Virus record (IMG/VR): IMGVR_UViG_3300020159_002019
Coordinates: 32,001-96,000 of that record
Origin: a virus
Direction: 5' to 3' (one strand)
Length of the DNA: 64,000 bases
A program made the position numbers and the translations under genes. The notes under the pieces were generated by a model. The model was not told the origin of the DNA and did not search any database. It saw only the letters and a program-made list of their open reading frames with translations. Positions 44,534-57,452 of this stretch are shown here, piece after piece (position 1 is the stretch's first letter; every line of letters begins with the position of its first letter).

Positions 44534-45481
44534 ATGGATTATTCACTTATTACAGATTTAGTTGTTTCAATATTTGGAAACATTAAAAAAACTTATCACG
44601 GAAACTCACAAGTAACCGTTGATTGTCCTTTGTGTTCCGCCGATAAAGGTGTTGAATATGATGGGAAAGGAAACCTTGAAATAAACCTTGAACAAGGATT
44701 ATCTCATTGTTGGTCTTGCGAAAGAACACCCGGAACAATTGATGGACTTATTAAAAAGTTCGGAAATAAACCCCAATATAAGACATTTAAAGTTATTGCC
44801 CCTGAATATGATTACCAAATCAATAAAAGAAAATATACTAAAAAAGATAATAACATTACGGAGTTTCCAAAAGAATTTATCCCGTTCTCAACAATAAATA
44901 AAAGAAACTATATCCACCTTCAACCATATAATTACATTATATCGAGAGGTTATACAGATGAATTATTAAAGGAATATAATATAGGGTTTTGTTTAGAAGG
45001 GAAATATAAACAAAGAATAGTAATACCATTATACGATAAGAAAGGTAATATTATTTATTTCTCAACCAGGTCATATACAGGTGCTAAACAAAAATATCTA
45101 AATCCTGATACAGATAAAGATGATTTAATATTTAATGAAAATAGAATTGATTGGGAAAAACCATTATATATTACAGAAGGTGTATTTGATGGATTACCAA
45201 TACCTAACCATTTCTTATTATTAGGGAAATCATTATCGGAGTTTAAATGGAAAACAATATATGATAACGCTAAATCGGATATTGTAATTGCTTTAGATCC
45301 TGACGCTAAAGAACAGACGTATAGAATGTATCAGAAGTTAAATGCTGGTAAATTAAGGAATAAAGTATTTGTATTACAATATACCGATGATAGGGATTTA
45401 GGTAAATTATTTGAAAATAAAAAAGATTTTAACGATACGATATTGAATTACAGATATTTAAGTGAATTTGAAATAATTTAA
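44534..45481 (+). CDS. DNA primase (zinc finger + TOPRIM)
   Basis: CPLC..HCWSC, RIVIP, KYLNP, ITEGVFD, ALDPDA, DLG motifs. Confidence 0.88.
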   Translation: MDYSLITDLVVSIFGNIKKTYHGNSQVTVDCPLCSADKGVEYDGKGNLEINLEQGLSHCWSCERTPGTIDGLIKKFGNKPQYKTFKVIAPEYDYQINKRKYTKKDNNITEFPKEFIPFSTINKRNYIHLQPYNYIISRGYTDELLKEYNIGFCLEGKYKQRIVIPLYDKKGNIIYFSTRSYTGAKQKYLNPDTDKDDLIFNENRIDWEKPLYITEGVFDGLPIPNHFLLLGKSLSEFKWKTIYDNAKSDIVIALDPDAKEQTYRMYQKLNAGKLRNKVFVLQYTDDRDLGKLFENKKDFNDTILNYRYLSEFEII

Positions 45482-45581
45482 TTTAAAAAACATTTGGAAG
45501 TATAAAAAATTATATTACCTTTGTGGTATGAAAAATTAATTACATATTTAATGGTAATTATTTAAAAAAAATAAAAAAAAG

Positions 45582-45612
45582 TTTGACAATTAAAAAAAAA
45601 GTAGTATCTTTG
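45582..45612 (+). promoter_or_regulatory. Bacteroidetes sigmaA-type promoter of tRNA array 1
   Basis: TTTG-N19-TATCTTTG. Confidence 0.75.
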
Positions 45613-45658
45613 TATCACAAATAAGAAAAACATACTATTTATTAGTAAGAAAATATAT

Positions 45659-45731
45659 CGTGGAGTAGTAGCAGTGGTAGCTCGCAAGGCTCATAACCTT
45701 GAGGTCGGTGGTTCGAATCCATCCTCCGCAA
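45659..45731 (+). tRNA. tRNA-fMet(CAT)
   Basis: Cloverleaf with CAAGG-CTCATAA-CCTTG arm and C1:A72 mismatch. Confidence 0.85.
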
Positions 45732-45769
45732 CAATTTAAAAAAAGTAAAACAATTAAAAAAAAAAGATT

Positions 45770-45847
45770 ATGACAACAATTATTAACATATTTGAATTTA
45801 ACGTGATTGAGGATAGAAGCCTCGGTTTGGGATATCTTTGTGTCTAA
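45770..45847 (+). CDS. leader peptide of attenuator 1 (MTTIINIFEFNVIEDRSLGLGYLCV)
   Basis: 25-aa ORF rich in I/F/E/D codons, overlapping the antiterminator strand. Confidence 0.75.
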   Translation: MTTIINIFEFNVIEDRSLGLGYLCV

Positions 45848-45870
45848 TAATGTGTAGTTAGAATGAATTA

Positions 45871-45905
45871 AAAGAAACCCAAACCTAATAAGTTTGGGTT
45901 TTTTT
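45871..45905 (+). terminator. attenuator terminator 1
   Basis: AAACCCAAAC/GTTTGGGTTT stem plus U tract; 5' arm also pairs with GGTTTGGG at 45824-45831. Confidence 0.8.
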
Positions 45906-45930
45906 GTTTTATATTGTTATTTGAAAATAC

Positions 45931-46006
45931 GGTTCATAGGTCAAATGGTTAAGATATCTCCCTGTCACGGAGTATGGAGCGGGTTCGATTCCCGTATGAA
46001 CCGCCA
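45931..46006 (+). tRNA. tRNA-Asp(GTC)
   Basis: CTCC-CTGTCAC-GGAG arm; encoded CCA. Confidence 0.9.
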
Positions 46007-46012
46007 AAATAG

Positions 46013-46089
46013 GGTATCAGGGGCTGCTGGGTGTGGCTACTTGACTGTCACTCAAGAAAAACAGGTGGGTTCGAATCCCATTGGTACCG
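46013..46089 (+). tRNA. tRNA-Asp(GTC), second divergent copy
   Basis: CTTGA-CTGTCAC-TCAAG arm; canonical T arm. Confidence 0.8.
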
Positions 46090-46100
46090 CAAAAATAAAT

Positions 46101-46174
46101 GTTCCGTTGGACAAATTGGTTAAGTCGTTTCCCTTTCAAGGAAAAGATTGCGGGTTCAAATCCCGTACGGAATA
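46101..46174 (+). tRNA. tRNA-Glu(TTC)
   Basis: TTTCC-CTTTCAA-GGAAA arm. Confidence 0.88.
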
Positions 46175-46181
46175 CAAAAAT

Positions 46182-46254
46182 GGGTTTATAGTGAAATTGG
46201 TGATCACGCATCCCTGATAAGGATGTATTATAGGTTCAAATCCTATTAGACCTA
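46182..46254 (+). tRNA. tRNA-Ile(GAT)
   Basis: CATCC-CTGATAA-GGATG arm. Confidence 0.88.
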
Positions 46255-46260
46255 CAATAT

Positions 46261-46333
46261 GGTGCAGTGGCAGATAAGGTTATTGCGGCGGACTGAAAAT
46301 CCGTAGGAGTCGGATCGTTACCGACCTGCACCA
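46261..46333 (+). tRNA. tRNA-Phe(GAA)
   Basis: GCGGA-CTGAAAA-TCCGT arm; variant T loop ATCGTTA. Confidence 0.85.
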
Positions 46334-46342
46334 CAATAATAT

Positions 46343-46416
46343 ACTACCATAGCTCAATTGGTGAGAGCAGGATGCTTATACCATCAAGGTTGTCGGTTCA
46401 AATCCGGTTGGTAGTA
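46343..46416 (+). tRNA. tRNA-Ile(TAT)
   Basis: GATG-CTTATAC-CATC arm; canonical D and T arms. Confidence 0.82.
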
Positions 46417-46421
46417 CAAAT

Positions 46422-46492
46422 GGGATAAAAGCACATAAGGATGTGCAGACCCTAAACAGGGTAAGGATTGGGTTCGAATCCCAGATATTCCA
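46422..46492 (+). tRNA. tRNA-like gene with aberrant anticodon arm (undetermined)
   Basis: Acceptor, D and T arms present; anticodon arm ACCCT-AAAC-AGGGT lacks a 7-nt loop. Confidence 0.6.
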
Positions 46493-46545
46493 CAAAAAAA
46501 TTAAAAAAAGTTTGGAAATAATAAAAAAAGGAGTATCTTTGTAGT

Positions 46546-47403
46546 ATGGCAAAAATAGAAACATTAAAAGCAAAATTCCCTAATATAACCGAACAAACAT
46601 TTATTCGTTTATTTGAGGGTGACAAGACATCTACTAAAAAGTATGCTGAATTTTTACTTTCCGCTTGGAATAGAAAAGGGACAAATTATGGTGGTTTAAG
46701 GGGTGTTGATGACTATATTAAATTGGTTGAGAATTTTGAGAAATTAACCCCTTATATTGATAATAAGGATATATACTCTTATGGAGATATTCAATCAATA
46801 GTTGGTGTTGTTAAAATAGCTGAAGCCGAAAAAAATGAAAAATCTTTTGATAAAGATGAACACATTTCAGTTATTGAAGAAACTGAAGATTATATCTTTT
46901 TGATACCTAAAACACACGTTGGTTCATTAAAATATGGTTCTAATACTAAATGGTGCACAGCGGCATCAACAAGTCCTGGAACTTTTAAATCATATATTGA
47001 TAGAGGTTTTTTAGCTTATTTAGTTGATAAGAAAAATAAAAAGACGAATAATCAAAATAAATTGGCTTTTTATTTTACAAATAAAGAAAACTTACTTACA
47101 CAAGTAATCCAAATCTTTAATCAATTAGATTCACTTGTAAATGAAAACCAAGTAATACAGAGTGGTTGGGATATTATGTTATTGAGTAATCTTATAACTA
47201 AATTGAGGGTTTTCTTATTTGAGTTTAAGGAGAAAGAAAAAGTTAGGGTTGAAGTATCTAAAACAATTCAACAATTGAATCAAATCAATTACGATAACTT
47301 CTTTAATGCTTTAAATACGTTAAAGATAAATCCTGAGAATGTTGAAGAATTGAAAAACGCTTTAGGGTTAGTTAAAACTTCAATGAAAAAAATCAAAGTA
47401 TGA
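46546..47403 (+). CDS. hypothetical protein, YGxxxKWCT family
   Basis: KYGSNTKWCTA motif; sigmaA-type promoter at 46511-46541 directly upstream. Confidence 0.65.
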   Translation: MAKIETLKAKFPNITEQTFIRLFEGDKTSTKKYAEFLLSAWNRKGTNYGGLRGVDDYIKLVENFEKLTPYIDNKDIYSYGDIQSIVGVVKIAEAEKNEKSFDKDEHISVIEETEDYIFLIPKTHVGSLKYGSNTKWCTAASTSPGTFKSYIDRGFLAYLVDKKNKKTNNQNKLAFYFTNKENLLTQVIQIFNQLDSLVNENQVIQSGWDIMLLSNLITKLRVFLFEFKEKEKVRVEVSKTIQQLNQINYDNFFNALNTLKINPENVEELKNALGLVKTSMKKIKV

Positions 47404-47750
47404 GGAGTGTAAAACAAATCAAAAAGTTAAGATATACTAATGATTGGGTGTCAAATGTTGATGATTCAAATATAACTTATCGTCTTTTTACTTATAATGG
47501 TTTAACTTGGAATGTTATTTTAACTAACCGACAAGAATTAGGTGGTTGGACAATAAGGTTATGTAATAATGATGGTGATGAATTATACATTTTTAATTCA
47601 GGTGTGAATAGAATGTCCATATCAATAAATGACGATTTAATTTACGAATTAGATGGTTGGTATTATGAAAATATAACTGAATTGAAGAATAGGTTAGAAA
47701 ACGATTTAATCGTATTATTAAGGAAATATGAGGAGTATATCAAAAATTAG
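47400..47750 (+). CDS. hypothetical protein
   Basis: Coupled ORF. Confidence 0.55.
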   Translation: MRSVKQIKKLRYTNDWVSNVDDSNITYRLFTYNGLTWNVILTNRQELGGWTIRLCNNDGDELYIFNSGVNRMSISINDDLIYELDGWYYENITELKNRLENDLIVLLRKYEEYIKN

Positions 47751-48060
47751 GGTAAGTGTAAAACAAGATTTTCAAGAATGGTTGGAAAAAACTACCATTA
47801 GTAGATGGATGCCAAGACATAGAATAATATGTAATGATGGGTTTTCTATGTCAGTTCAGGGTGGTGAGTTTACATATTCAAACCCAAGACAATTTGGTAG
47901 TAGTTTTACTGAAATGGAGATTGGGTTTCCTTCTGAGTATGAAGAATTGATTAGTAGTTATTCTGACTCTAATGAATATACTCAAACTGTTTATCCATAT
48001 GTCCCAGTAAGTTTAATTATTGAAGTGATTGAAAAACACGGAGGAATAAAAAAAGATTAG
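47728..48060 (+). CDS. hypothetical phage protein
   Basis: ICNDGFSMSVQG..YSNPR..EIGFPS..VYPYVP. Confidence 0.65.
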   Translation: MRSISKIRVSVKQDFQEWLEKTTISRWMPRHRIICNDGFSMSVQGGEFTYSNPRQFGSSFTEMEIGFPSEYEELISSYSDSNEYTQTVYPYVPVSLIIEVIEKHGGIKKD

Positions 48061-48077
48061 AAAAAAATAAAAAAAGA

Positions 48078-48108
48078 TTTGACAAGTTAAAAAAAAATGT
48101 TATCTTTG
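48078..48108 (+). promoter_or_regulatory. Bacteroidetes sigmaA-type promoter of tRNA array 2
   Basis: TTTG-N19-TATCTTTG. Confidence 0.75.
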
Positions 48109-48187
48109 TATAACAAATGGGATATGAAAATATTTTTTAGATTTCCTTGACAAAAACAAAAAAACAAACTATTTATAAATTAAAGAT

Positions 48188-48298
48188 ATGAAAAACACGA
48201 ATAAAAATATGACTATGGTTGTGAAAGCAACGGCAAAAGGTGGGAATAGAAATACCACACTTGGTTTAGGGCGTGTTATGTCTTTAATGGATAGATAA
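48188..48298 (+). CDS. leader peptide of attenuator 2 (MKNTNKNMTMVVKATAKGGNRNTTLGLGRVMSLMDR)
   Basis: 36-aa ORF; the first 24 codons encode only M/K/N/T/V/A/G/R. Confidence 0.8.
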   Translation: MKNTNKNMTMVVKATAKGGNRNTTLGLGRVMSLMDR

Positions 48299-48322
48299 TA
48301 CAATAATATAAAAAGATATATT

Positions 48323-48359
48323 AAAAACCCTGAACCATAAAAAAGTTCAGGGTTTTTTT
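48323..48359 (+). terminator. attenuator terminator 2
   Basis: AAAAACCCTGAAC/GTTCAGGGTTTTT stem; 5' arm also pairs with TGGTTTAGGG at 48262-48271. Confidence 0.8.
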
Positions 48360-48367
48360 ATTTATAA

Positions 48368-48439
48368 TCCAGATTAGTTTAATTGGGAAAACACGTCTCT
48401 TGTAAAGATGAAAAGTTGGTTCGAATCCGACATTTGGAT
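48368..48439 (+). tRNA. tRNA-Thr(TGT)
   Basis: CGTCT-CTTGTAA-AGATG arm. Confidence 0.85.
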
Positions 48440-48545
48440 CAAAGAAAATAGTAAAAAATTAATTAAAAATATGAAACGAAAACAGTAGGGTGTATGATCA
48501 ATTAGGAATAGGTTGCATACACTAAAAATTAAAAAAAATGTATAT

Positions 48546-48633
48546 GCACCTATGGCTTAATTGGTAGAGCAACCGGCTTTTAACCGGTGGGGTAGACGAA
48601 AGTCCGTTGAAGGTTCGAGTCCTTCTGGGTGCA
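48546..48633 (+). tRNA. tRNA-Lys(TTT) with long variable arm
   Basis: ACCGG-CTTTTAA-CCGGT arm; extra GAC-GAAA-GTC hairpin. Confidence 0.85.
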
Positions 48634-48639
48634 CAATTT

Positions 48640-48712
48640 ACTTTCGTAGCTTAATTGGTAAAGAAACTAACTCTTAATTAGTGTGATGTGAGTTCGAGTC
48701 TCACTGGAAGTA
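48640..48712 (+). tRNA. tRNA-Lys(CTT)
   Basis: ACTAA-CTCTTAA-TTAGT arm. Confidence 0.82.
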
Positions 48713-48739
48713 CTAAATGTTATTTGAAATATTATAAAT

Positions 48740-48812
48740 TGGGATGTAACTCAGAGGCTAGAGTGTTTGCCTGTTAAGCAAAAAGTCGAGATATCGTAAT
48801 TCTCCATCCCAG
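48740..48812 (+). tRNA. tRNA-Asn(GTT)
   Basis: TTTGC-CTGTTAA-GCAAA arm; variant T loop. Confidence 0.8.
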
Positions 48813-48873
48813 CAAAAATTGAAAGATAAACGTATGAAACAAAGGAATGTAGTGGTTTATTAAGTAAATATAT

Positions 48874-48945
48874 GGCTCTATCGTTTAACGCATAAGACAT
48901 TTCTCTTCTAAAGAAAGAATAGGGGTTGGATTCCCTTTAGAGCCA
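48874..48945 (+). tRNA. tRNA-Arg(TCT)
   Basis: TTTCT-CTTCTAA-AGAAA arm. Confidence 0.8.
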
Positions 48946-48952
48946 CAGCAAT

Positions 48953-48977
48953 CCAAGTTCGATTCTTGGTGGGAGTA
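48953..48977 (+). pseudogene. tRNA 3' fragment (T arm + acceptor 3' strand)
   Basis: CCAAG-TTCGATT-CTTGG-TGGGAGT-A with no 5' half. Confidence 0.6.
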
Positions 48978-48986
48978 CAAAAAAAT

Positions 48987-49057
48987 ACCTTCTTAGTTAA
49001 ATGGGAGAATATCTGTTTTACATACAGAAGATAACTGTTCGATTCAGTTAGGGGGTA
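48987..49057 (+). tRNA. tRNA-Val(TAC)
   Basis: TCTGT-TTTACAT-ACAGA arm. Confidence 0.82.
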
Positions 49058-49109
49058 CAAAAAAAGATTTGATTTTTTAAAAAAAATTATTATCTTTAAA
49101 AAACAATAT

Positions 49110-49182
49110 GGGGTTATGGTATAGTTGGCGAACACAGTAGCTTTGCAAGCTTCAGTCCCGAGTTCAAATCTCGGTAGCTCCA
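49110..49182 (+). tRNA. tRNA-Ala(TGC)
   Basis: TTTGCAA anticodon loop; G3:U70 pair. Confidence 0.88.
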
Positions 49183-49185
49183 CAA

Positions 49186-49255
49186 TGTTTCACTTAGAAT
49201 AAAAACAAACGCTTAATAGCAACAAACTCTTAATTTGTCAATTATTAGTGAAACA
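49186..49255 (+). ncRNA. Y-RNA-like stem element A with a Lys(CTT) anticodon-stem-loop mimic
   Basis: TGTTTCACT/AGTGAAACA closing stem, CACTTAGAATAA motif, internal ACAAA-CTCTTAA-TTTGT. Confidence 0.55.
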
Positions 49256-49258
49256 AAT

Positions 49259-49329
49259 GTCGATATAGTTAAATGGGATAACACCCCTCTCATCAAGGGA
49301 AGTTATTGGTTCGAATCCAGTTATCGATA
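49259..49329 (+). tRNA. tRNA-Met(CAT), elongator (Ile2 not excluded)
   Basis: CCCT-CTCATCA-AGGG arm; paired 1:72. Confidence 0.78.
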
Positions 49330-49340
49330 CCCTGAAATAA

Positions 49341-49417
49341 TATTTCACTTAGAATAAAAAACTATTTGAATTTATCCTCCAATGGAGGGTGTATTTAATC
49401 CAATTAATAGTGAAATA
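49341..49417 (+). ncRNA. Y-RNA-like stem element B
   Basis: TATTTCACT/AGTGAAATA closing stem with the same CACTTAGAATAAAAA and CAATTAxTAGTGAAA ends as element A. Confidence 0.55.
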
Positions 49418-49420
49418 AAT

Positions 49421-49493
49421 GCGGGTGTAGCTCAATTGGTAGAGCGCGACCTTGCCAAGGTCGAGGCTGTGGGATCGTACCCCATCACCCGCT
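49421..49493 (+). tRNA. tRNA-Gly(GCC)
   Basis: CGACC-TTGCCAA-GGTCG arm. Confidence 0.9.
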
Positions 49494-49496
49494 CAT

Positions 49497-49703
49497 TGAG
49501 TAAGAGGTACTCAGTAGTCTTTAATCCAAGACTCATTTAACAATGGATTCGCTTAAATCGGACAGCGAAAATGCCGGTTCTTAGGAATAAGGAGCGAAGC
49601 ACACCTCCCCTTCGTAGTGTGACTATTTTTAATGGGGATGCCCTTCAGGTTTTTGGAAAGAAGAAAACCGAAATGACTACTCACCTAAATCTCAAGGTGG
49701 GGT
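49497..49703 (+). ncRNA. unidentified ~200-nt structured RNA with two potential pseudoknots
   Basis: Series of hairpins with loop-to-downstream complementarity; GC richer than flanks; lies between two Gly tRNAs. Confidence 0.55.
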
Positions 49704-49709
49704 AAACAA

Positions 49710-49781
49710 GCGAGTATCGTATAATGGCTATTATACCACGCTTCCAACGTGGGGATGTGATTTCGATTATCACTACTCGCT
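49710..49781 (+). tRNA. tRNA-Gly(TCC)
   Basis: CCACG-CTTCCAA-CGTGG arm. Confidence 0.85.
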
Positions 49782-49794
49782 CCGGACGTTTTAG

Positions 49795-49832
49795 AAATCA
49801 GTAATATTTTTTTGGTATTACTGATTTTTTTT
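49795..49832 (+). terminator. terminator ending tRNA array 2 (overlaps the yqeY promoter)
   Basis: AAATCAGTAATA/TATTACTGATTT stem plus T tract; TACCTTTG at 49835. Confidence 0.7.
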
Positions 49833-49858
49833 ATTACCTTTGTAGAAATAATAAAATT

Positions 49859-50308
49859 ATGACACTTAAAGAACAAATTCAAAAAGACTTCATCACGGCT
49901 ATGAAAAATAAAGATGAATGGACTAAATCCGCTCTAAGTGGGTTAAAATCAAAGATTACTGAAGCTGAAAAAGTTAATGGAACAGAATTATCAGACGCTG
50001 ATATTCTTAAACTAATTAATAAAGGTATTAAACAAAGGGAAGAATCTGCTACTATATATAGTGAAGCAGGTCGTCCGGAATTAGCTGCGAAAGAATTACT
50101 TGAACTTAATGTTTTAATGGATTATATGCCAGCTCAAATGACTGATGAGGAAATTGAAACGGCTGTAAGGGAAATTATTGTTGGATTACCTACAATGACA
50201 AACGCAAATGCCTTGTCAGGAAAAACTATGGGTGAATTCAATAAAAAGTATCAAGGAATGGCTGATTCTAAAAGAGTTTCAGAAATTATAAAAAAAGTTG
50301 TATCATAA
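49859..50308 (+). CDS. yqeY: GatB/YqeY domain protein
   Basis: LKEQIQKDFITAMKNKD..KQREESATIYSEAGRPELA..YMPAQM. Confidence 0.9.
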   Translation: MTLKEQIQKDFITAMKNKDEWTKSALSGLKSKITEAEKVNGTELSDADILKLINKGIKQREESATIYSEAGRPELAAKELLELNVLMDYMPAQMTDEEIETAVREIIVGLPTMTNANALSGKTMGEFNKKYQGMADSKRVSEIIKKVVS

Positions 50309-50352
50309 TTTGACTTTCAATAAACAATAAACTATAATTAAAAAACAAAAAT

Positions 50353-50463
50353 GGGGGGTAATTTTTTAGTGGATTGAAAATACCACTTAGAATAACTCTA
50401 AACTATATTGGTAAAAGTTTGACTAATAATCAAATATAGAAGGTTCGAACCCTTCACCCCCCG
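50353..50463 (+). ncRNA. tRNA-like RNA with expanded anticodon loop (YrlA-like, or intron-containing tRNA-Leu(TAG))
   Basis: GGGGGGT/ACCCCCC acceptor, GAAGG-TTCGAAC-CCTTC T arm, variable hairpin, TACCA-[CTTAGAATAACTCTAAACTATAT]-TGGTA. Confidence 0.6.
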
Positions 50464-50493
50464 CAATTATTAACAATATAAAACATAAAGTAT

Positions 50494-52332
50494 ATGACAG
50501 AATTAGTAAAAGAAAAAATGAAGTTATCTAACACATTAGATACATTACAATTTTTAAGAACCGCTAAAGGTGCTTCAGATGAAAAAATTCATTTGGCTTT
50601 AGATAAAGCCTATGCTGAAACAACATCTAATGGAGTTGAGGAAATGTTATATAGAATTATGTTTCATATTGGAGATATTTCAAGAAAGCATAATATCTTT
50701 AAAGAATTTGAAATCAACTCAGAAGTGGGTGGGGCTCAAGAAAGAAAGATATTTAGATCTTGTGTAAGATGGATGCAAAAGAACACCCCAGAGTTCTTGC
50801 ATAACAACTTAAAGTTAGTAGTTGAATATACTTCATACGAAACTTTAATGTATTACCAAGTAAGCACAAACAGATATTTGGGTAATGTTATGGGTGTTGA
50901 AAAACTATTCATTGACAACCAATATTTGTTCCCTTTCTTAAAGTCTGAGATTGAATCAGGTGTAAACTTGAACTTAATCGCAAGACACTTACCTAAATAT
51001 GCTACAGGTAAGCAAAGAACAACTAAAAAGACTTTAGTTGGTAAAAGGGGAAGAACTGAATTCAGTTGGACATTACCGAAAGGTAAGACTTGGGTTAAAA
51101 TCAATGGAAACCTTGTAAATGGTGATAAAATCACGGTTAAGCATGGTGATGTTGCTGAATACCCAAGAGAAAAGAAATCTGAGTCTTTAACAAGACAAAG
51201 TTTCTTAAACAAGTGGATTAAGGATTTCTGTGATTATATGAAATGGACAATCGCTGATTACAAAGCATTTAAGGGTAAGCAGAATACTGCTGAACAAAAA
51301 ATGTCAAGTGGTTCAGTAATGTCTATGACAGAAGATCAATTTAATGGTTTCTTGGATTCTTTGACTGCGGGACAAAGAAAAAGGGTTGTAAAATCATTGG
51401 GTAATCCTAAATGGGGACAGCTAACTAAATGGTATAAGGCTTGGGAAGATGACCAATCTAACTTAGCTGAAAAAATTAGAAAAGCTACCACACCTGCTGA
51501 AAAAGCCGCTTTGATGAAAGATTTCAAAGTTAAAACAACAGGGGATCAAACAATTGATTTGTTGGCTGAAATGCTTGGTAAGGGTTTAAATGCTCAACAA
51601 GTAAATAACAACTATCAATCAATGATTGAGAGAATGAACATTAAACATTCAGTATTTCCAATTATTGACGGTTCGGGTTCTATGGATAGTACTTTTGACC
51701 ATAACGGTGTAGGAATATCTAACAGACAAGTAGCATACGCAATGGCAATTGCATTTACTACAATGAATCCAAACCCAAGATTTAGAAATACTTATGGTTG
51801 GTTCTCAAACGACTTTAAGGTTTTTGGTAGGTCTGAGTATGGTGATACCTATATATCTATGTTTAAGAATGTGGATAAGTATGTAAGTCATACAAAGACT
51901 TTTACTGAGAATTACAGATTACTTATGGAGACAGATCCAAAAGAAATTACATCTACAAATATGTTTGCTTCGGTAGAATATTTTGTAAATCTTGTGAAAA
52001 CAGGAAGATGTACTATGGAAGAATTACCTGAAACATTACTTTATCTTACAGATAATGAGTATAATTCAGGTAAATCACCAAAAGAAGCGGTTACTTTAGC
52101 CAATTCAATTGGATGGAGACCAAAGTTAATTTTTTGGGGTATTACCACAATGACTCATTCTATTAAGGAAGAGTTAAAATATACTCCGAATGGTTTATTC
52201 ATCGGTGGTTTCAACGAAAGTTGTTTATCACAAATCTTGGATGGAATCTCAAAAGATTCAATAAATCCAGAAGATGAATTGTGGGCTATTTATAACGATA
52301 TTCGTTATAGTGTAATTAAAGTAGGTGAATAA
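50494..52332 (+). CDS. Ro60/TROVE-like (DUF2828-type) protein with C-terminal vWA domain
   Basis: Helical N-terminal region with GAQERKIFR; MIDAS motif IIDGSGSM; STNM, LTDNEY, LIFWG. Confidence 0.7.
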   Translation: MTELVKEKMKLSNTLDTLQFLRTAKGASDEKIHLALDKAYAETTSNGVEEMLYRIMFHIGDISRKHNIFKEFEINSEVGGAQERKIFRSCVRWMQKNTPEFLHNNLKLVVEYTSYETLMYYQVSTNRYLGNVMGVEKLFIDNQYLFPFLKSEIESGVNLNLIARHLPKYATGKQRTTKKTLVGKRGRTEFSWTLPKGKTWVKINGNLVNGDKITVKHGDVAEYPREKKSESLTRQSFLNKWIKDFCDYMKWTIADYKAFKGKQNTAEQKMSSGSVMSMTEDQFNGFLDSLTAGQRKRVVKSLGNPKWGQLTKWYKAWEDDQSNLAEKIRKATTPAEKAALMKDFKVKTTGDQTIDLLAEMLGKGLNAQQVNNNYQSMIERMNIKHSVFPIIDGSGSMDSTFDHNGVGISNRQVAYAMAIAFTTMNPNPRFRNTYGWFSNDFKVFGRSEYGDTYISMFKNVDKYVSHTKTFTENYRLLMETDPKEITSTNMFASVEYFVNLVKTGRCTMEELPETLLYLTDNEYNSGKSPKEAVTLANSIGWRPKLIFWGITTMTHSIKEELKYTPNGLFIGGFNESCLSQILDGISKDSINPEDELWAIYNDIRYSVIKVGE

Positions 52333-52342
52333 CCTACTTTTT

Positions 52343-52561
52343 TTATGCCTTTATTTTAACCACAACCTCACCTTCATTATTAGTGGTTAGATAATATTCT
52401 TTTTTGTTTGTAAATCCATATTTTTTAGATATGTTTGATTCTATCCTTTTTTTGGTTGATGGTGTGTTAGCAAATGTAATATGTGGTTGAACATATTCAT
52501 CTTTGAATTGTTCCATTTTATTTACCGTTTCTTTAATAATTCTCTTAATTAAATTTTTCAT
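52343..52561 (-). CDS. small virion-type protein
   Basis: MKNLIKRIIKE N-terminal motif; TATTTAT upstream on the minus strand. Confidence 0.55.
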   Translation of the reverse strand: MKNLIKRIIKETVNKMEQFKDEYVQPHITFANTPSTKKRIESNISKKYGFTNKKEYYLTTNNEGEVVVKIKA

Positions 52562-52628
52562 ATAAATAAATATTTGGTTTTATGAAAACTATTATTTATA
52601 TTTGTATTGTAATTAAAAAATAAAATAT

Positions 52629-53294
52629 ATGTATAATAACAAAACAGATTTTAACAAATTCGCAACATCGCATATGGGTATATCGTCTTTATACCTCGAT
52701 GATCTTCAATCGTCAATGACACCTCACATCTTAGAAGAAAGACCGACAAGAGCAAATCTTATGTCAGTATTTGATAGATTGATGCAAGATAGGATTATTT
52801 GGGTTGCCGGTGCGGTTGATGAGGGTATGTCACAAGTTATTCAAGCGCAATTGATTTACTTGTCAAACTCAGACCCTAAGAAAGAAATTACGATGCACAT
52901 TGACACTCCTGGTGGTTCAGTAAAGGCTGGATTATCAATCGTGGATGTAATGGATTATGTTAAACCTGACATTAGAACAATCAATACAGGTATGGCGGCA
53001 TCAATGGGTTCAGTATTGTTAGGCGCTGGAACCAAAGGAAAAAGAATGTCTTTAAGATTTTCACAAACAATGCTACACCAATCTTCAGGTGGTGTGAGAG
53101 GAAATATTCAGGATGCTAGGATAACAATGATTGAATGGGAAAAAATAAATGATTTGTTATTTAATTTGTTAGGTGGGTATTGTGGTAAGGATGCTATCCA
53201 AGTAAAAGAAGATGCTTCTCGTGATTTATGGTTAAGTTCTGAAGAAGCGTTGGCTTATGGGATAATTGACGAAATAATCAAACCAAAAAAATAA
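52629..53294 (+). CDS. clpP: ATP-dependent Clp protease proteolytic subunit
   Basis: DRIIW, TPGGSV, GMAASMG (Ser), MLHQ (His), RDLWL (Asp), YGIID. Confidence 0.95.
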   Translation: MYNNKTDFNKFATSHMGISSLYLDDLQSSMTPHILEERPTRANLMSVFDRLMQDRIIWVAGAVDEGMSQVIQAQLIYLSNSDPKKEITMHIDTPGGSVKAGLSIVDVMDYVKPDIRTINTGMAASMGSVLLGAGTKGKRMSLRFSQTMLHQSSGGVRGNIQDARITMIEWEKINDLLFNLLGGYCGKDAIQVKEDASRDLWLSSEEALAYGIIDEIIKPKK

Positions 53295-53305
53295 TTAAAA
53301 AAAAG

Positions 53306-53336
53306 TTTGACAATTAGAAAAAAAATATTATCTTTG
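53306..53336 (+). promoter_or_regulatory. Bacteroidetes sigmaA-type promoter of tRNA array 3
   Basis: TTTG-N19-TATCTTTG. Confidence 0.75.
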
Positions 53337-53411
53337 TATTATAAATGGGATGTGAAAAATATTTTTCACATTTCCATAACAAAAACAAAAAAACAAACTA
53401 TTTAATATAAA

Positions 53412-53546
53412 ATGAAAACATTAATTAACATATCATTATCGTCATTGTATCTATTACAGTCGCTATGCCAAAGTTGTGTTTCGGTATTACCGTTACATCA
53501 GTATTGGTTAGTGCTAGGATTTAGTGCGGTGGGTATGTTAAGTTGA
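53412..53546 (+). CDS. leader peptide of attenuator 3 (MKTLINISLSSLYLLQSLCQSCVSVLPLHQYWLVLGFSAVGMLS)
   Basis: 44-aa ORF; 24 of codons 8-33 encode S/L/Y/Q/C/P/H/W. Confidence 0.8.
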   Translation: MKTLINISLSSLYLLQSLCQSCVSVLPLHQYWLVLGFSAVGMLS

Positions 53547-53568
53547 TAAGACAATAATATACCTTATT

Positions 53569-53610
53569 AAACCCCCTAAATCCGTATAAATGAGATTTAG
53601 GGGGTTTTTT
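53569..53610 (+). terminator. attenuator terminator 3
   Basis: AAACCCCCTAAATC/GATTTAGGGGGTTT stem plus U tract; 5' arm also pairs with GGATTTAG at 53517-53524. Confidence 0.8.
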
Positions 53611-53644
53611 ATTTTAGTTATTTGACATATTGTATTAGAAATAT

Positions 53645-53717
53645 CAGGGTGTATATCAATTGGGAGATTACTCCATTTGGATTGGAGAGGTTGTAGGTTC
53701 GAGTCCTATCACCCTGA
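53645..53717 (+). tRNA. tRNA-Pro(TGG)
   Basis: CTCCA-TTTGGAT-TGGAG arm. Confidence 0.85.
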
Positions 53718-53724
53718 CAAATAT

Positions 53725-53795
53725 TCCCCTTTCGTCTAACGGCAGGACAGATGGTTTTGAGCTATCGAATCGAGGTTCGAATCCTTGAGGGGGAA
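53725..53795 (+). tRNA. tRNA-Gln(TTG)
   Basis: GATGG-TTTTGAG-CTATC arm; U1:A72. Confidence 0.85.
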
Positions 53796-53847
53796 CCGGT
53801 TTGGGTTTTACACTTTTAAACTTACGAGATAAGGAAAAAGTGAAATT

Positions 53848-53918
53848 GGGATGATGCCGAGAGTGGTCAGACGGTCTGTAAAACCGAACTGCATAGTGTT
53901 TGAGTCACTTCCATCCCA
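53848..53918 (+). tRNA. tRNA-Tyr(GTA), atypical (short variable region)
   Basis: CGGT-CTGTAAA-ACCG arm; divergent D and T arms. Confidence 0.65.
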
Positions 53919-53928
53919 CAAAATAAAC

Positions 53929-54002
53929 GTAAGTGTAGTGAACAATGGCTAACACGTTCGGTTCCAACCCGAAAGATGTGGGTTCGACCCCTACCACTTG
54001 CG
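53929..54002 (+). tRNA. tRNA-Trp(CCA)
   Basis: TTCGG-TTCCAAC-CCGAA arm; G73. Confidence 0.85.
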
Positions 54003-54009
54003 CAAATAA

Positions 54010-54104
54010 GGAGAGGTGCTAGAGATGGATTATTGGGCTAGTCTTGAAAACTAGAGATCGTCAGTGATGGGGATCCGTGGGTTCGAATCCCACTCTCTCC
54101 TCCA
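54010..54104 (+). tRNA. tRNA-Ser(TGA)
   Basis: CTAGT-CTTGAAA-ACTAG arm, long variable arm, encoded CCA. Confidence 0.88.
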
Positions 54105-54109
54105 AATAT

Positions 54110-54188
54110 GGGTTTGTTGGTGTTAATTGGATGAGCATTTACGATTGTGGCTCGTAAGGTGAGGGGTTCGAATCCCCCATAAACCCCA
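54110..54188 (+). tRNA. tRNA-His(GTG)
   Basis: TACGA-TTGTGGC-TCGTA arm; G-1:C73. Confidence 0.85.
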
Positions 54189-54268
54189 AAAGTAAGGAAT
54201 TAGGTTATTATACGTAGGCTCCGAGTGTAATAACTGAAATTTAGATCCTTATGAACTTCGGTCCGCAG

Positions 54269-54356
54269 GGAGAATTGACAGAGTGGTAATGTATCGGTTT
54301 GCTAATCCGTAGTCTATGTAAAAGTAGCGGGGGCTCGAATCCCTCATTCTCCGCCA
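54269..54356 (+). tRNA. tRNA-Ser(GCT)
   Basis: TTGCTAA loop, long variable arm, encoded CCA. Confidence 0.82.
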
Positions 54357-54365
54357 AAAATAAAT

Positions 54366-54454
54366 GCTTCTGTGGCGAAATTGGTAGCACGCGATGGACT
54401 TAAAATCCATTGGGAAATAACAGTACCGTGTCGGTTCGATTCCGACCAGAAGTA
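54366..54454 (+). tRNA. tRNA-Leu(TAA)
   Basis: ATGGA-CTTAAAA-TCCAT arm, long variable arm. Confidence 0.88.
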
Positions 54455-54461
54455 CAAACAT

Positions 54462-54547
54462 ACCCCAATGTTGGAATGTAGACAACCTAGTTTTAGAAAC
54501 TAGTGTGAAGTAATAGTAGCGTCTGGGTTCAAATCCCAGTTGGGGTA
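54462..54547 (+). tRNA. tRNA-Leu(TAG)
   Basis: CTAGT-TTTAGAA-ACTAG arm. Confidence 0.82.
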
Positions 54548-54553
54548 CAAAAT

Positions 54554-54641
54554 GGGAATGTGGTGTGAGTGGTTGAAACCGGGGGTCTGCAAAACCCCAA
54601 AAACGAAAGTTTTCACGTCAGTTCGAATCTGATCATTCCCT
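54554..54641 (+). tRNA. tRNA-Cys(GCA) with long variable arm
   Basis: GGGGT-CTGCAAA-ACCCC arm; U73; extra AAAAC-GAAA-GTTTT hairpin. Confidence 0.82.
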
Positions 54642-54650
54642 CAATTACAT

Positions 54651-54723
54651 GACCCCATAGTTCAATGGATTAGAATACTTGAATACGGATCAGGAGATGA
54701 GAGTTCAAATCTTTCTGGGGTTA
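54651..54723 (+). tRNA. tRNA-Arg(ACG)
   Basis: CTTGA-ATACGGA-TCAGG arm. Confidence 0.8.
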
Positions 54724-54726
54724 CAA

Positions 54727-54755
54727 AAAGAAAACCATTTTTATATGGTTTTTTT
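54727..54755 (+). terminator. terminator ending tRNA array 3
   Basis: AAAACCAT/ATGGTTTT stem plus T tract. Confidence 0.65.
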
Positions 54756-54779
54756 TATGCCATTACATATTTATTACAT

Positions 54780-57452
54780 ATGATTATTATTGAAGGAAAA
54801 TTAGAAGATTTATCTAAGAAATATATACCGAAGTTTAATAGGGATTCATTTACTGAAGGTTTAACCCCTGAATCTGTTATTGAGCATTTATATGTTTCAG
54901 ATCCATCACCAACAAAGAAATACTTTGAGTGGATGATTAAAGAATGTTTGGGATTGATAGAACGTAATTATGTTATTAACAATGAAAAAATAGCTAAACT
55001 TGTAACGGATATCCAAGAATTTGATAGAAATATTGATAAACTTAGTCAGGATTTTTTAGATTATAATAAAGAAGAAATTGGTGAAATTGCGTATAAGTTT
55101 TTAAATGGTAAGGCTTTAAAAGATATTGGTACATATAATTACGATATTTTAAGAAAAATAATACCTTCATTGGTAGAATATAAGACAGAAAGTCAAAGAA
55201 GAAGATTGGCTAAAGAAGGTGCTAAAATTATATTTCAAGATGAAAAATATGATGTTTATGAAATAGATACTTATGACGCTTCTTGTTTTTATGGTCAAGG
55301 TTCTAAATGGTGTACAACTTATAAACAAAGTGATTCACATTTTAAATCATATGGTACTGGTAGGAATAAATTATTATATGTTATTAGTAAAACTAAGACA
55401 AAAGAAACTGATCCTCAATTTTATAAGATTGCTATAAATATAAGGTATGTTGATGAACAAATAACATTTTGGGATGCTCCTGATAATAGTTTTAATGGTT
55501 GGAAATATTTTAGGGAACAAGATCCAAATATTTTAACTTTTTTGATTTCTTATATTAAAGAAAAGAATCCTGAAGGATATCTTAAAATGATACCTGAAAA
55601 CTATTTAATAACGATTAAACAAGAAGAAGAAGGTTTAAGTGATTTAAATATTATTTCGGTTTTAGATGTTGATAAATCTAGTGATTGGTTAAGTCATAAA
55701 TATGGGTTAAATGGTGTGGATACTATTATTAAAAAATTGGATATATTACAAGGTAATGTCAGTAATTTTTTAGGTGATTATTTTACCAGTGATGAAAAAG
55801 AGTATTTAATCATAAAAAGAAGTGAGAAATTAGAACCAAGAGGTTTGTCGTGGAAAGATTTAGTTAAAAGTTATCACCAATTAGCAATTACTCTAGATAG
55901 CTATCAACCAAGTTGGTTTATTGATAATTTTTTAGGTGGGGATAAAAACAAAGCGTTAGAAATTGGGACAAAAGAACCGATAGTACTATATTGGTTGGCT
56001 AGAGGTAGTGTTAATATAAAGGATTTGGGTGATTTATATGGAGCTGAAAAACTTGTTAAATATATTACTAAAAGTAAAGTTAAAGTTATTTTTGGGTTAA
56101 GTGATATATTGGGTGGTTTATTTACAAATGAAACTCCAAAGAAAAGAAAGGAGTTATATGAAATTGCTTATAAGTATGATGGCAAAAAAAGGAATATTGA
56201 ATTAGTCGATTATTTGTCTAGACGTATGGGTAAAGAGGGATTCATTGCGTCATTTAATAAAGGTGATGGATATGGAATTGAACCTGATTCATATGGAAGA
56301 GCATTTTTATATGTTAAAAATAATAACCCTGATTTAATAAGTAATGTATTTAACATTGAGGATATTAGTAAAATCTTCAAGTCAAACGAAAAAGCGTTTA
56401 CTTATTTATTAAAAAATTATGATGAATTTACACGTAATTTAGATATTAGTGATTTAACTGAAATGTTTAGTGGTGATGTTCCTGATAGTATATATGGTAA
56501 ATATATGAGTGATTGGGAAAAGAGGAATGTTGCGTCAATATATAGAATGAAAAATGGTTCTGAAAAACTATTTGATTTTGTTCTTAAAAAGTTTTCTTTT
56601 AAAAAGTTAGCCGATATCATCGGATATGATGGAGTATTTCAATTATTTTCTATTGTTAAGTTTAAAAAAGGTATAAACTATATGATTGAAAATAAGGTTG
56701 GCGATATCGCTATTGATGATATAAAAATAAAAGATGGTAAGGTGGTATTGGTTGTTAATGATAGAACGGATTATGCGTTTTTATTTGATGATGAAGATTT
56801 GGCTAAAACTATATTGGGTGAAGATATGGATTGGGAACCGTATAACGATACTATTTATAATTGGTATGATCAAGTATGGGATTGTATGGTACCAAAATCA
56901 ATTGAACTGGTTAAGTCTTGGATTAAAAGTAATATAACAGATTATGAGAATGATGAAGGTGAAAAAATTGATTTAGGTGATACATATTTAAATGAAATAG
57001 ATGATGATGATTTGGGTAAAATAATAGATGAGTACGATGAATTTAGGGATTTAAAAAATGAGATGAGTTGGGCTTATGATAATGGTTATAATTCTGTTGC
57101 TCAAAGTGATATTATTAGTAAAACACAAGATCAATTAGAAGAATATTTAGGTAGTTATATAGGGTATGAACCAGTTAAAAAGAATGGTCGTAGATATAAT
57201 AAAGAAACAGGTAATTCTGAATCATACGAATATACAGCATATGAATACTTATATAATGTGGGTGATGGTTTATATGATATATTATATGATTATGCAACTA
57301 CTAATTGGGGTCATTCGGTTGATTACAACACATATTTTAGCACTTTATTAAAGGATTCTGACCCTAAAAAGTTATATATTGATACTGAGGCTTATCCAGA
57401 CGATAAAGAAATTTGTGAGTATTTTAATGATGATTTACCGGAAAGAATATGA
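54780..57452 (+). CDS. large hypothetical protein, YGxxxKWCT family
   Basis: DPSPTKKYFEWM and FYGQGSKWCTT motifs; acidic C-terminal region. Confidence 0.65.
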   Translation: MIIIEGKLEDLSKKYIPKFNRDSFTEGLTPESVIEHLYVSDPSPTKKYFEWMIKECLGLIERNYVINNEKIAKLVTDIQEFDRNIDKLSQDFLDYNKEEIGEIAYKFLNGKALKDIGTYNYDILRKIIPSLVEYKTESQRRRLAKEGAKIIFQDEKYDVYEIDTYDASCFYGQGSKWCTTYKQSDSHFKSYGTGRNKLLYVISKTKTKETDPQFYKIAINIRYVDEQITFWDAPDNSFNGWKYFREQDPNILTFLISYIKEKNPEGYLKMIPENYLITIKQEEEGLSDLNIISVLDVDKSSDWLSHKYGLNGVDTIIKKLDILQGNVSNFLGDYFTSDEKEYLIIKRSEKLEPRGLSWKDLVKSYHQLAITLDSYQPSWFIDNFLGGDKNKALEIGTKEPIVLYWLARGSVNIKDLGDLYGAEKLVKYITKSKVKVIFGLSDILGGLFTNETPKKRKELYEIAYKYDGKKRNIELVDYLSRRMGKEGFIASFNKGDGYGIEPDSYGRAFLYVKNNNPDLISNVFNIEDISKIFKSNEKAFTYLLKNYDEFTRNLDISDLTEMFSGDVPDSIYGKYMSDWEKRNVASIYRMKNGSEKLFDFVLKKFSFKKLADIIGYDGVFQLFSIVKFKKGINYMIENKVGDIAIDDIKIKDGKVVLVVNDRTDYAFLFDDEDLAKTILGEDMDWEPYNDTIYNWYDQVWDCMVPKSIELVKSWIKSNITDYENDEGEKIDLGDTYLNEIDDDDLGKIIDEYDEFRDLKNEMSWAYDNGYNSVAQSDIISKTQDQLEEYLGSYIGYEPVKKNGRRYNKETGNSESYEYTAYEYLYNVGDGLYDILYDYATTNWGHSVDYNTYFSTLLKDSDPKKLYIDTEAYPDDKEICEYFNDDLPERI

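Follow-up and report, generated by a model that had tools for sequence, protein, structure and literature searches.

Why would a phage place a short reading frame, rich in the codons of one particular set of tRNAs, between a promoter and the genes for those same tRNAs? To our knowledge, the control of phage tRNA genes is largely unknown, and this question is raised by attenuator 3, a leader and terminator in front of the third tRNA array of virus record IMGVR_UViG_3300020159_002019 (IMG/VR). The window analyzed here is the 64,000-nucleotide stretch formed by bases 32001-96000 of this 109,290-bp record, with 29% G+C. We propose, with a probability of about 0.75, that attenuator 3 is a ribosome-mediated, multi-input leader-peptide attenuator that senses the decoding of codons cognate to its own array. 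A first-pass annotation made from the letters alone had described a leader-peptide attenuator whose codons mirror the array, and the parts of the element, its specificity for its own array, its relatives and its counterparts in distant phages all agree with that description.

The proteins encoded in the window are of phage type, including a UvsX-like recombinase, a helicase and methyltransferases, and the metagenome runs containing the window DNA come from freshwater or lakes. The phage probably infects a freshwater member of the Bacteroidota, because its strong promoters show the form TTTG ... TAnnTTTG, which we take to be the Bacteroidota consensus. ARAGORN and Rfam searches revealed 27 tRNA genes in three arrays, all on the + strand, as are all features of attenuator 3 described below. 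Array 1 (Asp, Asp, Glu, Ile, Phe, Ile) follows a lone tRNA-Met, and array 2 encodes Thr, Lys, Lys, Asn, Arg(TCT), Val, Ala, Met, Gly and Gly. The array behind attenuator 3, array 3 (53645-54724), encodes Pro(TGG), Gln(TTG), a Tyr-like sequence, Trp(CCA), Ser(TGA), His(GTG), Ser(GCT), Leu(TAA), Leu(TAG), Cys(GCA) and Arg(ACG). Neither ARAGORN nor Rfam called a tRNA-Tyr in the window, Tyr being the only amino acid missing from the calls. The gap between the Gln and Trp genes, when read directly, contains 71 nt (about 53848-53918) that resemble a divergent tRNA and have GTA, the Tyr anticodon, in the anticodon loop; two relatives, L003 and L010, carry a canonical tRNA-Tyr(GTA) at this position.

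The leader open reading frame (ORF) of attenuator 3 (53412-53546) runs from an ATG start through 44 codons to a TGA stop. Its sensor stretch, codons 8-33 (53433-53510), contains 24 of 26 codons for amino acids of array 3, namely Ser, Leu, Tyr, Gln, Cys, Pro, His and Trp, and both exceptions are Val; direct reading and the ORF listing confirmed the limits and the count as first annotated. The codon listing likewise agreed that Leu is encoded only by TTA, TTG or CTA and Ser only by TCA, TCG or AGT, and the ARAGORN calls agreed that the array holds Leu TAA and TAG and Ser TGA and GCT. Counted over the whole leader without its start codon, 29 of 43 codons belong to array-3 classes, compared with a proteome background of 0.30 (P = 5e-7), and 10 of the 11 array-3 tRNA classes are represented (P = 0.009). 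A six-frame scan of all ORFs of at least 15 codons in the whole 109-kb genome ranked the sensor as the top stretch for the array-3 amino-acid set among 1576 ORFs, with a score of 22.5; the runners-up, at 18.6 and 17.3, were antisense frames of AT-rich genes. The sensor also over-uses rare synonymous codons (P = 0.004), with seven G-ending codons where 1.8 were expected. The leu leader likewise contains rare CUA codons. The excess in the phage sensor could provide greater sensitivity, or could merely serve the RNA structure.

The same layout is found in all three attenuators of the window, each with a different amino-acid set and with different yet complementary strands. In leader 2, 29 of 35 codons belong to array-2 classes, compared with 1/35 for array 1 and 5/35 for array 3, and this leader is the best six-frame ORF stretch for the array-2 set. 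Leader 3 shows the corresponding preference for its own array, since only 3/43 and 11/43 of its codons belong to the classes of arrays 1 and 2, respectively. Leader 1 is short, and nine of its codons 4-15 encode Ile, Phe, Glu or Asp. In each unit, the end of the leader falls within the region of alternative RNA structure or immediately precedes it.

In attenuator 3, this region can be folded in two ways. The terminator hairpin (53572-53604, -22.8 kcal/mol) pairs a 5' arm at 53572-53583 (strand 3) with a 3' arm at 53594-53604 (strand 4) and is followed by a run of six U (53605-53610). The 5' arm is common to a predicted antiterminator, in which strand 2 (53517-53530, within leader codons 36-40) pairs with 53572-53584; the core of strand 2, GGATTTAG at 53517-53524, is complementary to CTAAATCC at 53576-53583. 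An inner hairpin of the antiterminator (53531-53564) is formed by GGGTATGTT (53531-53539) and AATATACCT (53556-53564) and encloses the stop codon (53544-53546); in the comparison of relatives, 84% of cells were paired and two pairs had changed on both sides. The core and inner pairings agree with the first-pass annotation. The gap of 9 nt between the Trp codon (53505-53507) and the antiterminator strand, reported there as the same in attenuator 1, also agreed with the coordinates, as an Asp codon of attenuator 1 (45812-45814) lies 9 nt before GGTTTGGG (45824-45831). When strand 4 was removed, the minimum-energy fold paired strands 2 and 3, stacked on the inner hairpin, in all three attenuators, with z = -3.4 to -4.0 for attenuators 2 and 3; when strand 4 was present, the predicted folds contained the terminator. 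The strand 2/strand 3 pairs of the window are GGUUUGGG/CCCAAACC, GGUUUAGGG/CCCUGAACC and GGAUUUAG/CUAAAUCC, which are unlike in sequence, each strand being complementary to its own partner. Besides attenuator 3, such an unlike yet complementary pair is found in six other attenuators, two in the window and four in distant phages. An additional hairpin is predicted within the sensor (53461-53513), with a core CGGTA/TACCG that is kept in relatives; it is possibly a pause element.

Upstream of the leader, a motif search revealed a Bacteroidota-type promoter (TTTG ... TAnnTTTG) with an extended shared motif at 53306-53339. The extended motif has three matches in the window (45582, 48078 and 53306), one before each attenuated array, and none were expected in shuffled sequences. 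Downstream of the promoter, units 2 and 3 have a 5' hairpin, then an A-rich stretch and then the leader; in unit 1, tRNA-Met comes first and leader 1 after it. The hairpin in the 5' untranslated region of attenuator 3 (53347-53375) is common to attenuator 2 and absent from the relatives L004, L010 and L013. The A-rich motif AAAAACAAACTATTTA (53389-53404) stands immediately before the start codon, and near-identical copies precede leader 2 and the unit-1 tRNA-fMet. No Shine-Dalgarno sequence was found in the start region of leader 3, which is usual for Bacteroidota. The distance from the U-run to the first tRNA is 34 nt in attenuator 3, 8 nt in attenuator 2 and 25 nt in attenuator 1, and none of these three spacers contains a canonical promoter. 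Expression of the arrays would therefore require polymerases to run through the terminators, and we regard these promoter-less spacers as the strongest structural argument for conditional termination.

Five relatives from IMG/VR and metagenomes were reached through the flanking 890-aa (amino acid) protein, YqeY and primase. A metagenome scan using the downstream 890-aa protein revealed four loci, of which L010 alone added a new leader, and an alignment search using the leader peptides returned only three contigs that were already known. Leader 3 is present in L001, L003, L004 and L010, where the frame, the start and the stop have been retained despite many substitutions. Residues 1-7 and 25-38 are nearly invariant; residues 25-38 overlap the sensor hairpin and strand 2, and the RNA strands of the switch fall on the conserved residues 34-40. 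Codons 8-24 are reshuffled, and 9 of the 12 distinct replacements in the sensor stay within the array-3 set. When leaders 2 and 3 were pooled, 18 of 24 replacements stayed within the set, compared with about 50% for random single-base changes (P about 0.01 by our own binomial estimate). Because the sensor residues drift, mostly inside the set, the comparison indicates that leader 3 is conserved in composition and not as a protein. The first-pass annotation had held that a peptide conserved regardless of array content would speak against an attenuator; the opposite was found.

The helices are also maintained in the relatives. Across the five genomes compared, pairing is complete (100%) in the terminator helix and in the main antiterminator helix. 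Strand 3, common to both helices, has changed twice, each time in a way that suits both of its partners, and one of these changes is accompanied by a compensatory one in the terminator. This covariation, with few events, lends the alternative folds modest support. We also considered whether the attenuators are more conserved than the flanking genes, which was true only of attenuator 1 (95%, compared with 77-88% for the genes); attenuators 2 and 3 were conserved at 81-82%, and the idea was dropped.

The relatives differ in their array architecture. In L003, leader 2 and its terminator are gone, along with eight array-2 tRNAs, so that the unit-2 promoter directly abuts two Gly tRNAs (L003 4750-4881). 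In L004, array 3 is broken by gaps of about 0.6-1 kb, probably caused by inserted genes (L004 4927-7812). No relative was found in a cultured-phage collection, where DNA matches were limited to tRNAs or ClpP. The 612-aa protein encoded between arrays 2 and 3 matched only Campylobacter phages there, at about 24% identity, and a 634-kb phage matched through ClpP (LR745206.1) has no tRNAs near its ClpP gene.

Distant records were reached by weak YqeY or primase similarity (36-56% identity). These phages are 165-309 kb in size and have 26-30 tRNA matches. No arrays lie beside the YqeY genes of loci L014-L026 or the primase genes of loci L031-L036; in three YqeY- or primase-linked records, arrays are located elsewhere. 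In G001, a 40-codon leader precedes an array of Ser, Gln, Met, Tyr, Phe, Asn, His, Arg(ACG), Ser, Pro, Ile, Cys and Trp; 28 of 39 leader codons are in the set (P = 1e-3), and all 13 classes are represented (P = 2e-4). G005 has two units. Its leader i precedes Leu(TAA), Arg(TCT), Thr, Asp and Glu, and its leader ii precedes a 16-class array, with 28 of 31 codons in the set (P = 7e-4) and 16/16 classes represented (P = 2.5e-6). In the G004 leader, all 34 codons belong to the 18 array classes (P = 8e-5) and 17 of the 18 classes occur (P = 3e-4); its Leu codons, CTA and CTC, stand before an array with Leu(TAG), the Leu(TAA) gene being located in another array. In all distant units, a strand at the 3' end of the ORF is complementary to the 5' arm of the terminator. 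The match between leader and array composition thus recurs in seven pairs, and the distant phages supply the leader-array covariation that was not available from the close family. Near the Ala and Gly tRNAs of L018 and L021 (e.g., L018 18350-18830), some tRNA-like genes are apparently split or interrupted by long inserts.

Does the match extend below the amino-acid level? The first-pass annotation had described leader 3 as matched to isoacceptors, which turned out to be barely above what codon usage predicts. All 24 in-set codons of the sensor are readable by array anticodons under strict wobble rules; 21.1 were expected from codon usage (P = 0.03). The leaders 3 of relatives carry CTT, CTC and TCT. 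L004 pairs its CTT codon with an additional tRNA-Leu(AAG), and L010 has CTC without such a tRNA. For Leu and Ser in leader 3, the sequences therefore indicate weak isoacceptor matching at best. The Arg codons seem to provide better evidence. The terminal Arg(ACG) tRNA had been described as lacking a matching codon and as a possible later addition. The lack of a codon is true of this genome, where leader 3 contains no CGN, but not of L001, which has CGC at codon 19. The later addition was not supported: the proposed comparison with relatives, from whose array 3 this tRNA might have been absent, revealed Arg(ACG) at the array end in every relative seen, and three distant leaders, in addition to that of L001, contain CGY. 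In all six sensors that carry an Arg codon, the codon family follows the array. Arrays with Arg(TCT) are preceded by AGA (leader 2 of the window) or AGG (leader i of G005), and arrays with Arg(ACG) by CGC or CGT (leader 3 of L001, G001, G004 and leader ii of G005). CGN makes up about 7% of the Arg codons in this genome.

These elements suggest the following mode of action. Transcription would start at the promoter (53306-53339), and a ribosome would translate the 44-codon leader behind the moving RNA polymerase. If the Ser, Leu, Tyr, Gln, Cys, Pro, His and Trp codons are decoded fast, the ribosome would cover strand 2 and enter the inner hairpin. With strand 2 covered while strands 3 and 4 are being made, the terminator (53572-53604) would win, transcription would stop at the U-run and the array would remain silent. 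If any cognate charged tRNA is scarce, the ribosome would stall within the sensor. The ribosome footprint is assumed to extend about 12 nt beyond the first base of the A-site codon; a ribosome stalled anywhere in codons 8-32 would leave strand 2 free, because the Trp codon ends 9 nt before strand 2. Free strand 2 would pair with strand 3 on its emergence, no terminator would form, and the polymerase would enter the tRNA genes. More of the sensed tRNAs would then relieve the stall, providing negative feedback on tRNA supply. Together, the three attenuator channels would cover all 20 amino acids, with the initiator tRNA outside the gate. What sequence and computation show is which parts are present and in what order, how they can pair alternatively, how the composition matches and what is conserved. 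From the analogy with known attenuators, we infer that the leader is translated, that stalling drives read-through and that a shortage of tRNA, and not of amino acids, is the limiting signal; the timing and the direction of the response are likewise taken from the classical attenuation model.

The tRNA-Met directly after the unit-1 promoter (45659-45732) has a C1:A72 mismatch in our own reading of the sequence and is probably the initiator. Because leader 1 and the terminator of unit 1 come only after this tRNA, it would be made whether the gate is open or shut. An ungated initiator would be sensible, since translation of the leaders needs the initiator. In L013, an ORF for a GIY-YIG-like homing endonuclease (L013 3279-3977) is inserted between tRNA-Met and leader 1.

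Several observations weigh against the attenuator. Over the whole ORF, leader 1 is weak (9/24, P = 0.14), and so is leader i of G005 (10/23, P = 0.08; classes 5/5). The array-3 set corresponds to codons starting with U or C, and the runners-up in the ORF scan were antisense frames, which suggests that the composition of leader 3 is less extreme than its binomial P value. Because antisense frames of AT-rich genes score fairly high for this set, the rank, 1 in about 1600, is the safer figure. Leader 3 has no protein homologue in a set of 5.8 billion proteins, and gene callers do not call the ORF; as it is probably never called, the missing homologues are uninformative on conservation. The RNA contigs of four metatranscriptomes leave all the leaders uncovered. 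The 612-aa gene is covered at 50405-52238, as is, in one run, 49106-49319 inside array 2; such contigs show neither transcript ends nor levels and are uninformative on attenuation, and the remaining short tRNA-like RNA contigs are probably from other organisms. In G001, the terminator is followed by a canonical promoter before the array begins, so the attenuator would not be the sole control there and would only add to a basal level.

The folding predictions raise a further point of this kind. Without a ribosome, the predicted default fold of attenuator 3 is the antiterminator. An anti-antiterminator (1:2) pairing between 53438-53452 and 53517-53530, predicted for this genome, is not obviously kept in L004, which leaves the behavior of attenuator 3 without translation uncertain. 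The switch may thus be on unless translation is efficient, and a general failure of translation may open the arrays too. In addition, as stalling reports charged tRNA, the true signal could be starvation for amino acids or a general stress on translation. The same hardware might then be a general gauge of translation capacity or amino-acid supply, in which any slowdown of ribosomes, or a failure of ribosomes to load, opens all arrays and the codon match is a by-product of the use of 'own' codons. This explanation is in line with the predicted default fold, by which loss of translation alone gives read-through, and with the accessory tRNA array of Anabaena, which is induced by general translation stress (PMC8421152, PMC10272220). 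However, a general gauge has no need for three leaders with disjoint amino-acid sets, each that of its own array, nor for a near-complete coverage of tRNA classes or for Arg codon families that track the isoacceptor. We therefore consider it unlikely, although it is the most serious of the alternatives.

Two other explanations dispense with sensing by a translating ribosome. The leader could be a stand-alone small gene, encoding a micro-protein or a small RNA, that always terminates, with the array transcribed from elsewhere and the match coincidental or otherwise used. The promoter after the G001 terminator would suit this explanation, as would the fairly hydrophobic character of leader 3, which makes a membrane peptide possible, and the conservation of residues 1-7 and 25-38. 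However, the spacers after the terminators of the window are too short for a canonical promoter, leaders 1 and 2 lack a hydrophobic character and the sensor residues are not conserved in sequence. Moreover, the conserved residues 34-40 are those of the switch RNA strands, and a coincidental match is hard to reconcile with its recurrence in seven leader-array pairs; we regard a stand-alone gene as improbable. Slightly less probable still is a translation-independent RNA switch, in which the leader RNA is recognized directly, in a T-box or TRAP-like manner, for example by a protein or by uncharged tRNA, and the ORF is incidental. The alternation of terminator and antiterminator is by itself no proof of a role for the ribosome. 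Nevertheless, an Rfam search revealed no T-box (RF00230) match at E <= 1 in 45000-55500. In 53306-53644, the only matches were sub-threshold ones of plastid 3' untranslated regions on the terminator hairpin. Thr_leader (RF00506) gave sub-threshold matches at attenuators 1 and 2 (27 and 23 bits, with a threshold of 55) and none at attenuator 3. An incidental ORF would also not be expected to keep its frame, start and stop in all relatives despite many substitutions, and RNA binding does not predict a composition signal that lies in the codon frame and tracks amino-acid identity.

The attenuator thus remains our preferred reading. A bolder form of it, which we offer tentatively and consider more doubtful than probable, is that the phage runs three independent, codon-resolved feedback loops on charged tRNA, each an OR-gate over 4 to 10 tRNA species that replaces the limiting tRNAs. 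The limitation might follow host shut-off, anticodon nucleases or other tRNA-depleting defenses. If this is true, the phage would measure the decoding speed for each codon class and top up only the missing tRNAs, and the attenuators could be the sensing arm of a phage counter-defense, with a possible link to tRNA-targeting host defenses, and a general principle of tRNA homeostasis in large Bacteroidota phages. The leaders would also provide a sequence rule to predict which tRNAs a phage handles as one unit and, for synthetic biology, compact programmable sensors of individual tRNA supply.

The arrays themselves (45931-54724) sort the genetic code by the first codon base. The amino acids of array 3 have codons starting with U or C, including the CGN portion of Arg, and those of array 2 have codons starting with A or G, including the AGR portion of Arg; array 1 has Asp, Glu, Ile and Phe. 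This partition differs in the distant phages. Two sub-threshold tRNA-like matches, one directly after array 1 (46422-46492) and the other at 50402-50455, scored 23.8 and 23.6 bits in Rfam against a cut-off of 29 and may be degenerate or unusual tRNAs.

Two non-coding elements lie close to the array-3 genes. The 34-nt spacer before the first tRNA contains a conserved motif, TTGACATATTG... (53622-53635). A motif of the form TTGACATATTGG/T... lies a few bases 5' of the first array tRNA and recurs in very distant jumbo phages (L037 16219-16232, - strand; L039 7983-7996; L038 8723-8736, - strand). We considered the motif at 53622-53635 as a second promoter and rejected this, since it is no general promoter of the window and in distant phages is located downstream of a canonical promoter; it is possibly a site of pre-tRNA processing or protein binding. 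The 50-nt spacer between tRNA-Gln and the Tyr position (53798-53847) is almost identical in four otherwise diverged phages, suggesting a functional element, e.g., a small RNA or a processing signal.

Several protein genes are located between the arrays. A YqeY-like (GatB-domain) protein (49859-50308) and a ClpP protease (52629-53294) are encoded there, and L001 and L010 have an additional ORF between ClpP and attenuator 3. The 612-aa protein (50494-52332) has no Pfam match. Its match in PHROG is family 850 ('RNA-binding protein'), and it can be aligned with Campylobacter phage proteins that have a vWA domain. Its gene is covered by RNA contigs with 95-99% identity from four metatranscriptome studies, so this gene, or the copy of a close relative, is probably transcribed in lakes. 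A Ro/vWA-like RNA-binding protein beside tRNA arrays may point to a connection with tRNA quality control.

How does attenuator 3 compare with known systems? Phage tRNA clusters in general, as in T4-like and jumbo phages, have been linked to codon compensation and to escape from tRNA-targeting defenses, and what phage tRNA genes are for has been a matter of debate for some 50 years (PMC10264068). The near-complete tRNA set in arrays is a feature that the phage studied here shares with such clusters. Among published systems, the accessory tRNA array with known regulation that comes nearest is the trn operon of Anabaena sp. PCC 7120, a supernumerary, horizontally mobile array that is silent by default and turned on when translation is impaired (PMC8421152). 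Its control lies at the promoter, where direct repeats are bound by the repressor TrcR (PMC8421152, PMC10272220), and the text of the 2021 paper contains none of the terms 'attenuat', 'leader' or 'terminator' (PMC8421152). In the phage, by contrast, the promoter is followed by a leader and a terminator. A full-text literature search, with most subscription journals outside it, revealed neither leader-peptide control of tRNA genes nor conditional, codon-matched control of phage arrays. The element is probably a novel form of leader-peptide attenuation placed in control of a phage tRNA array, and we found no published account of this for tRNA genes.

T-box riboswitches likewise sense tRNA status and use a terminator/antiterminator switch upstream of translation-related genes. 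However, a T-box binds one uncharged tRNA directly, via a specifier codon and the T-box motif and without a ribosome, whereas the phage signal is an ORF with many codons. The pheST attenuator of Escherichia coli, with its pheM leader, controls phenylalanyl-tRNA synthetase by leader-peptide attenuation and senses charged tRNA. It responds to one amino acid and regulates a synthetase protein from a host gene, whereas the phage leader would respond to many amino acids and regulate tRNAs.

The closest resemblance in layout is to the enterobacterial attenuators, such as those of ilvGMEDA (Ile/Leu/Val) and thr (Thr/Ile) and the leaders trpL, hisL, leuL and pheL. In these systems, too, a short leader with clustered regulatory codons lies between promoter and genes, the 5' arm of the terminator pairs alternatively with a strand just 3' of the regulatory codons, and multivalent leaders sense more than one amino acid. 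The phage element has no sequence or Rfam relationship to them, and its stop codon lies inside the antiterminator loop. Enterobacterial leaders contain runs of one to three amino acids, whereas the phage leader contains eight or more amino acids with one or a few codons each. Classical attenuators act on genes for amino-acid biosynthesis or synthetases, and the genes downstream of attenuator 3 are tRNAs; we see the tRNA target as the point of novelty and not as a failure of the mechanism. As tRNA genes rather than biosynthetic enzymes are regulated, the output would feed back on the sensed molecule itself. If so, the logic of trp and his has been turned from 'sense the amino acid, make the enzyme' to 'sense the tRNA, make the tRNA'.

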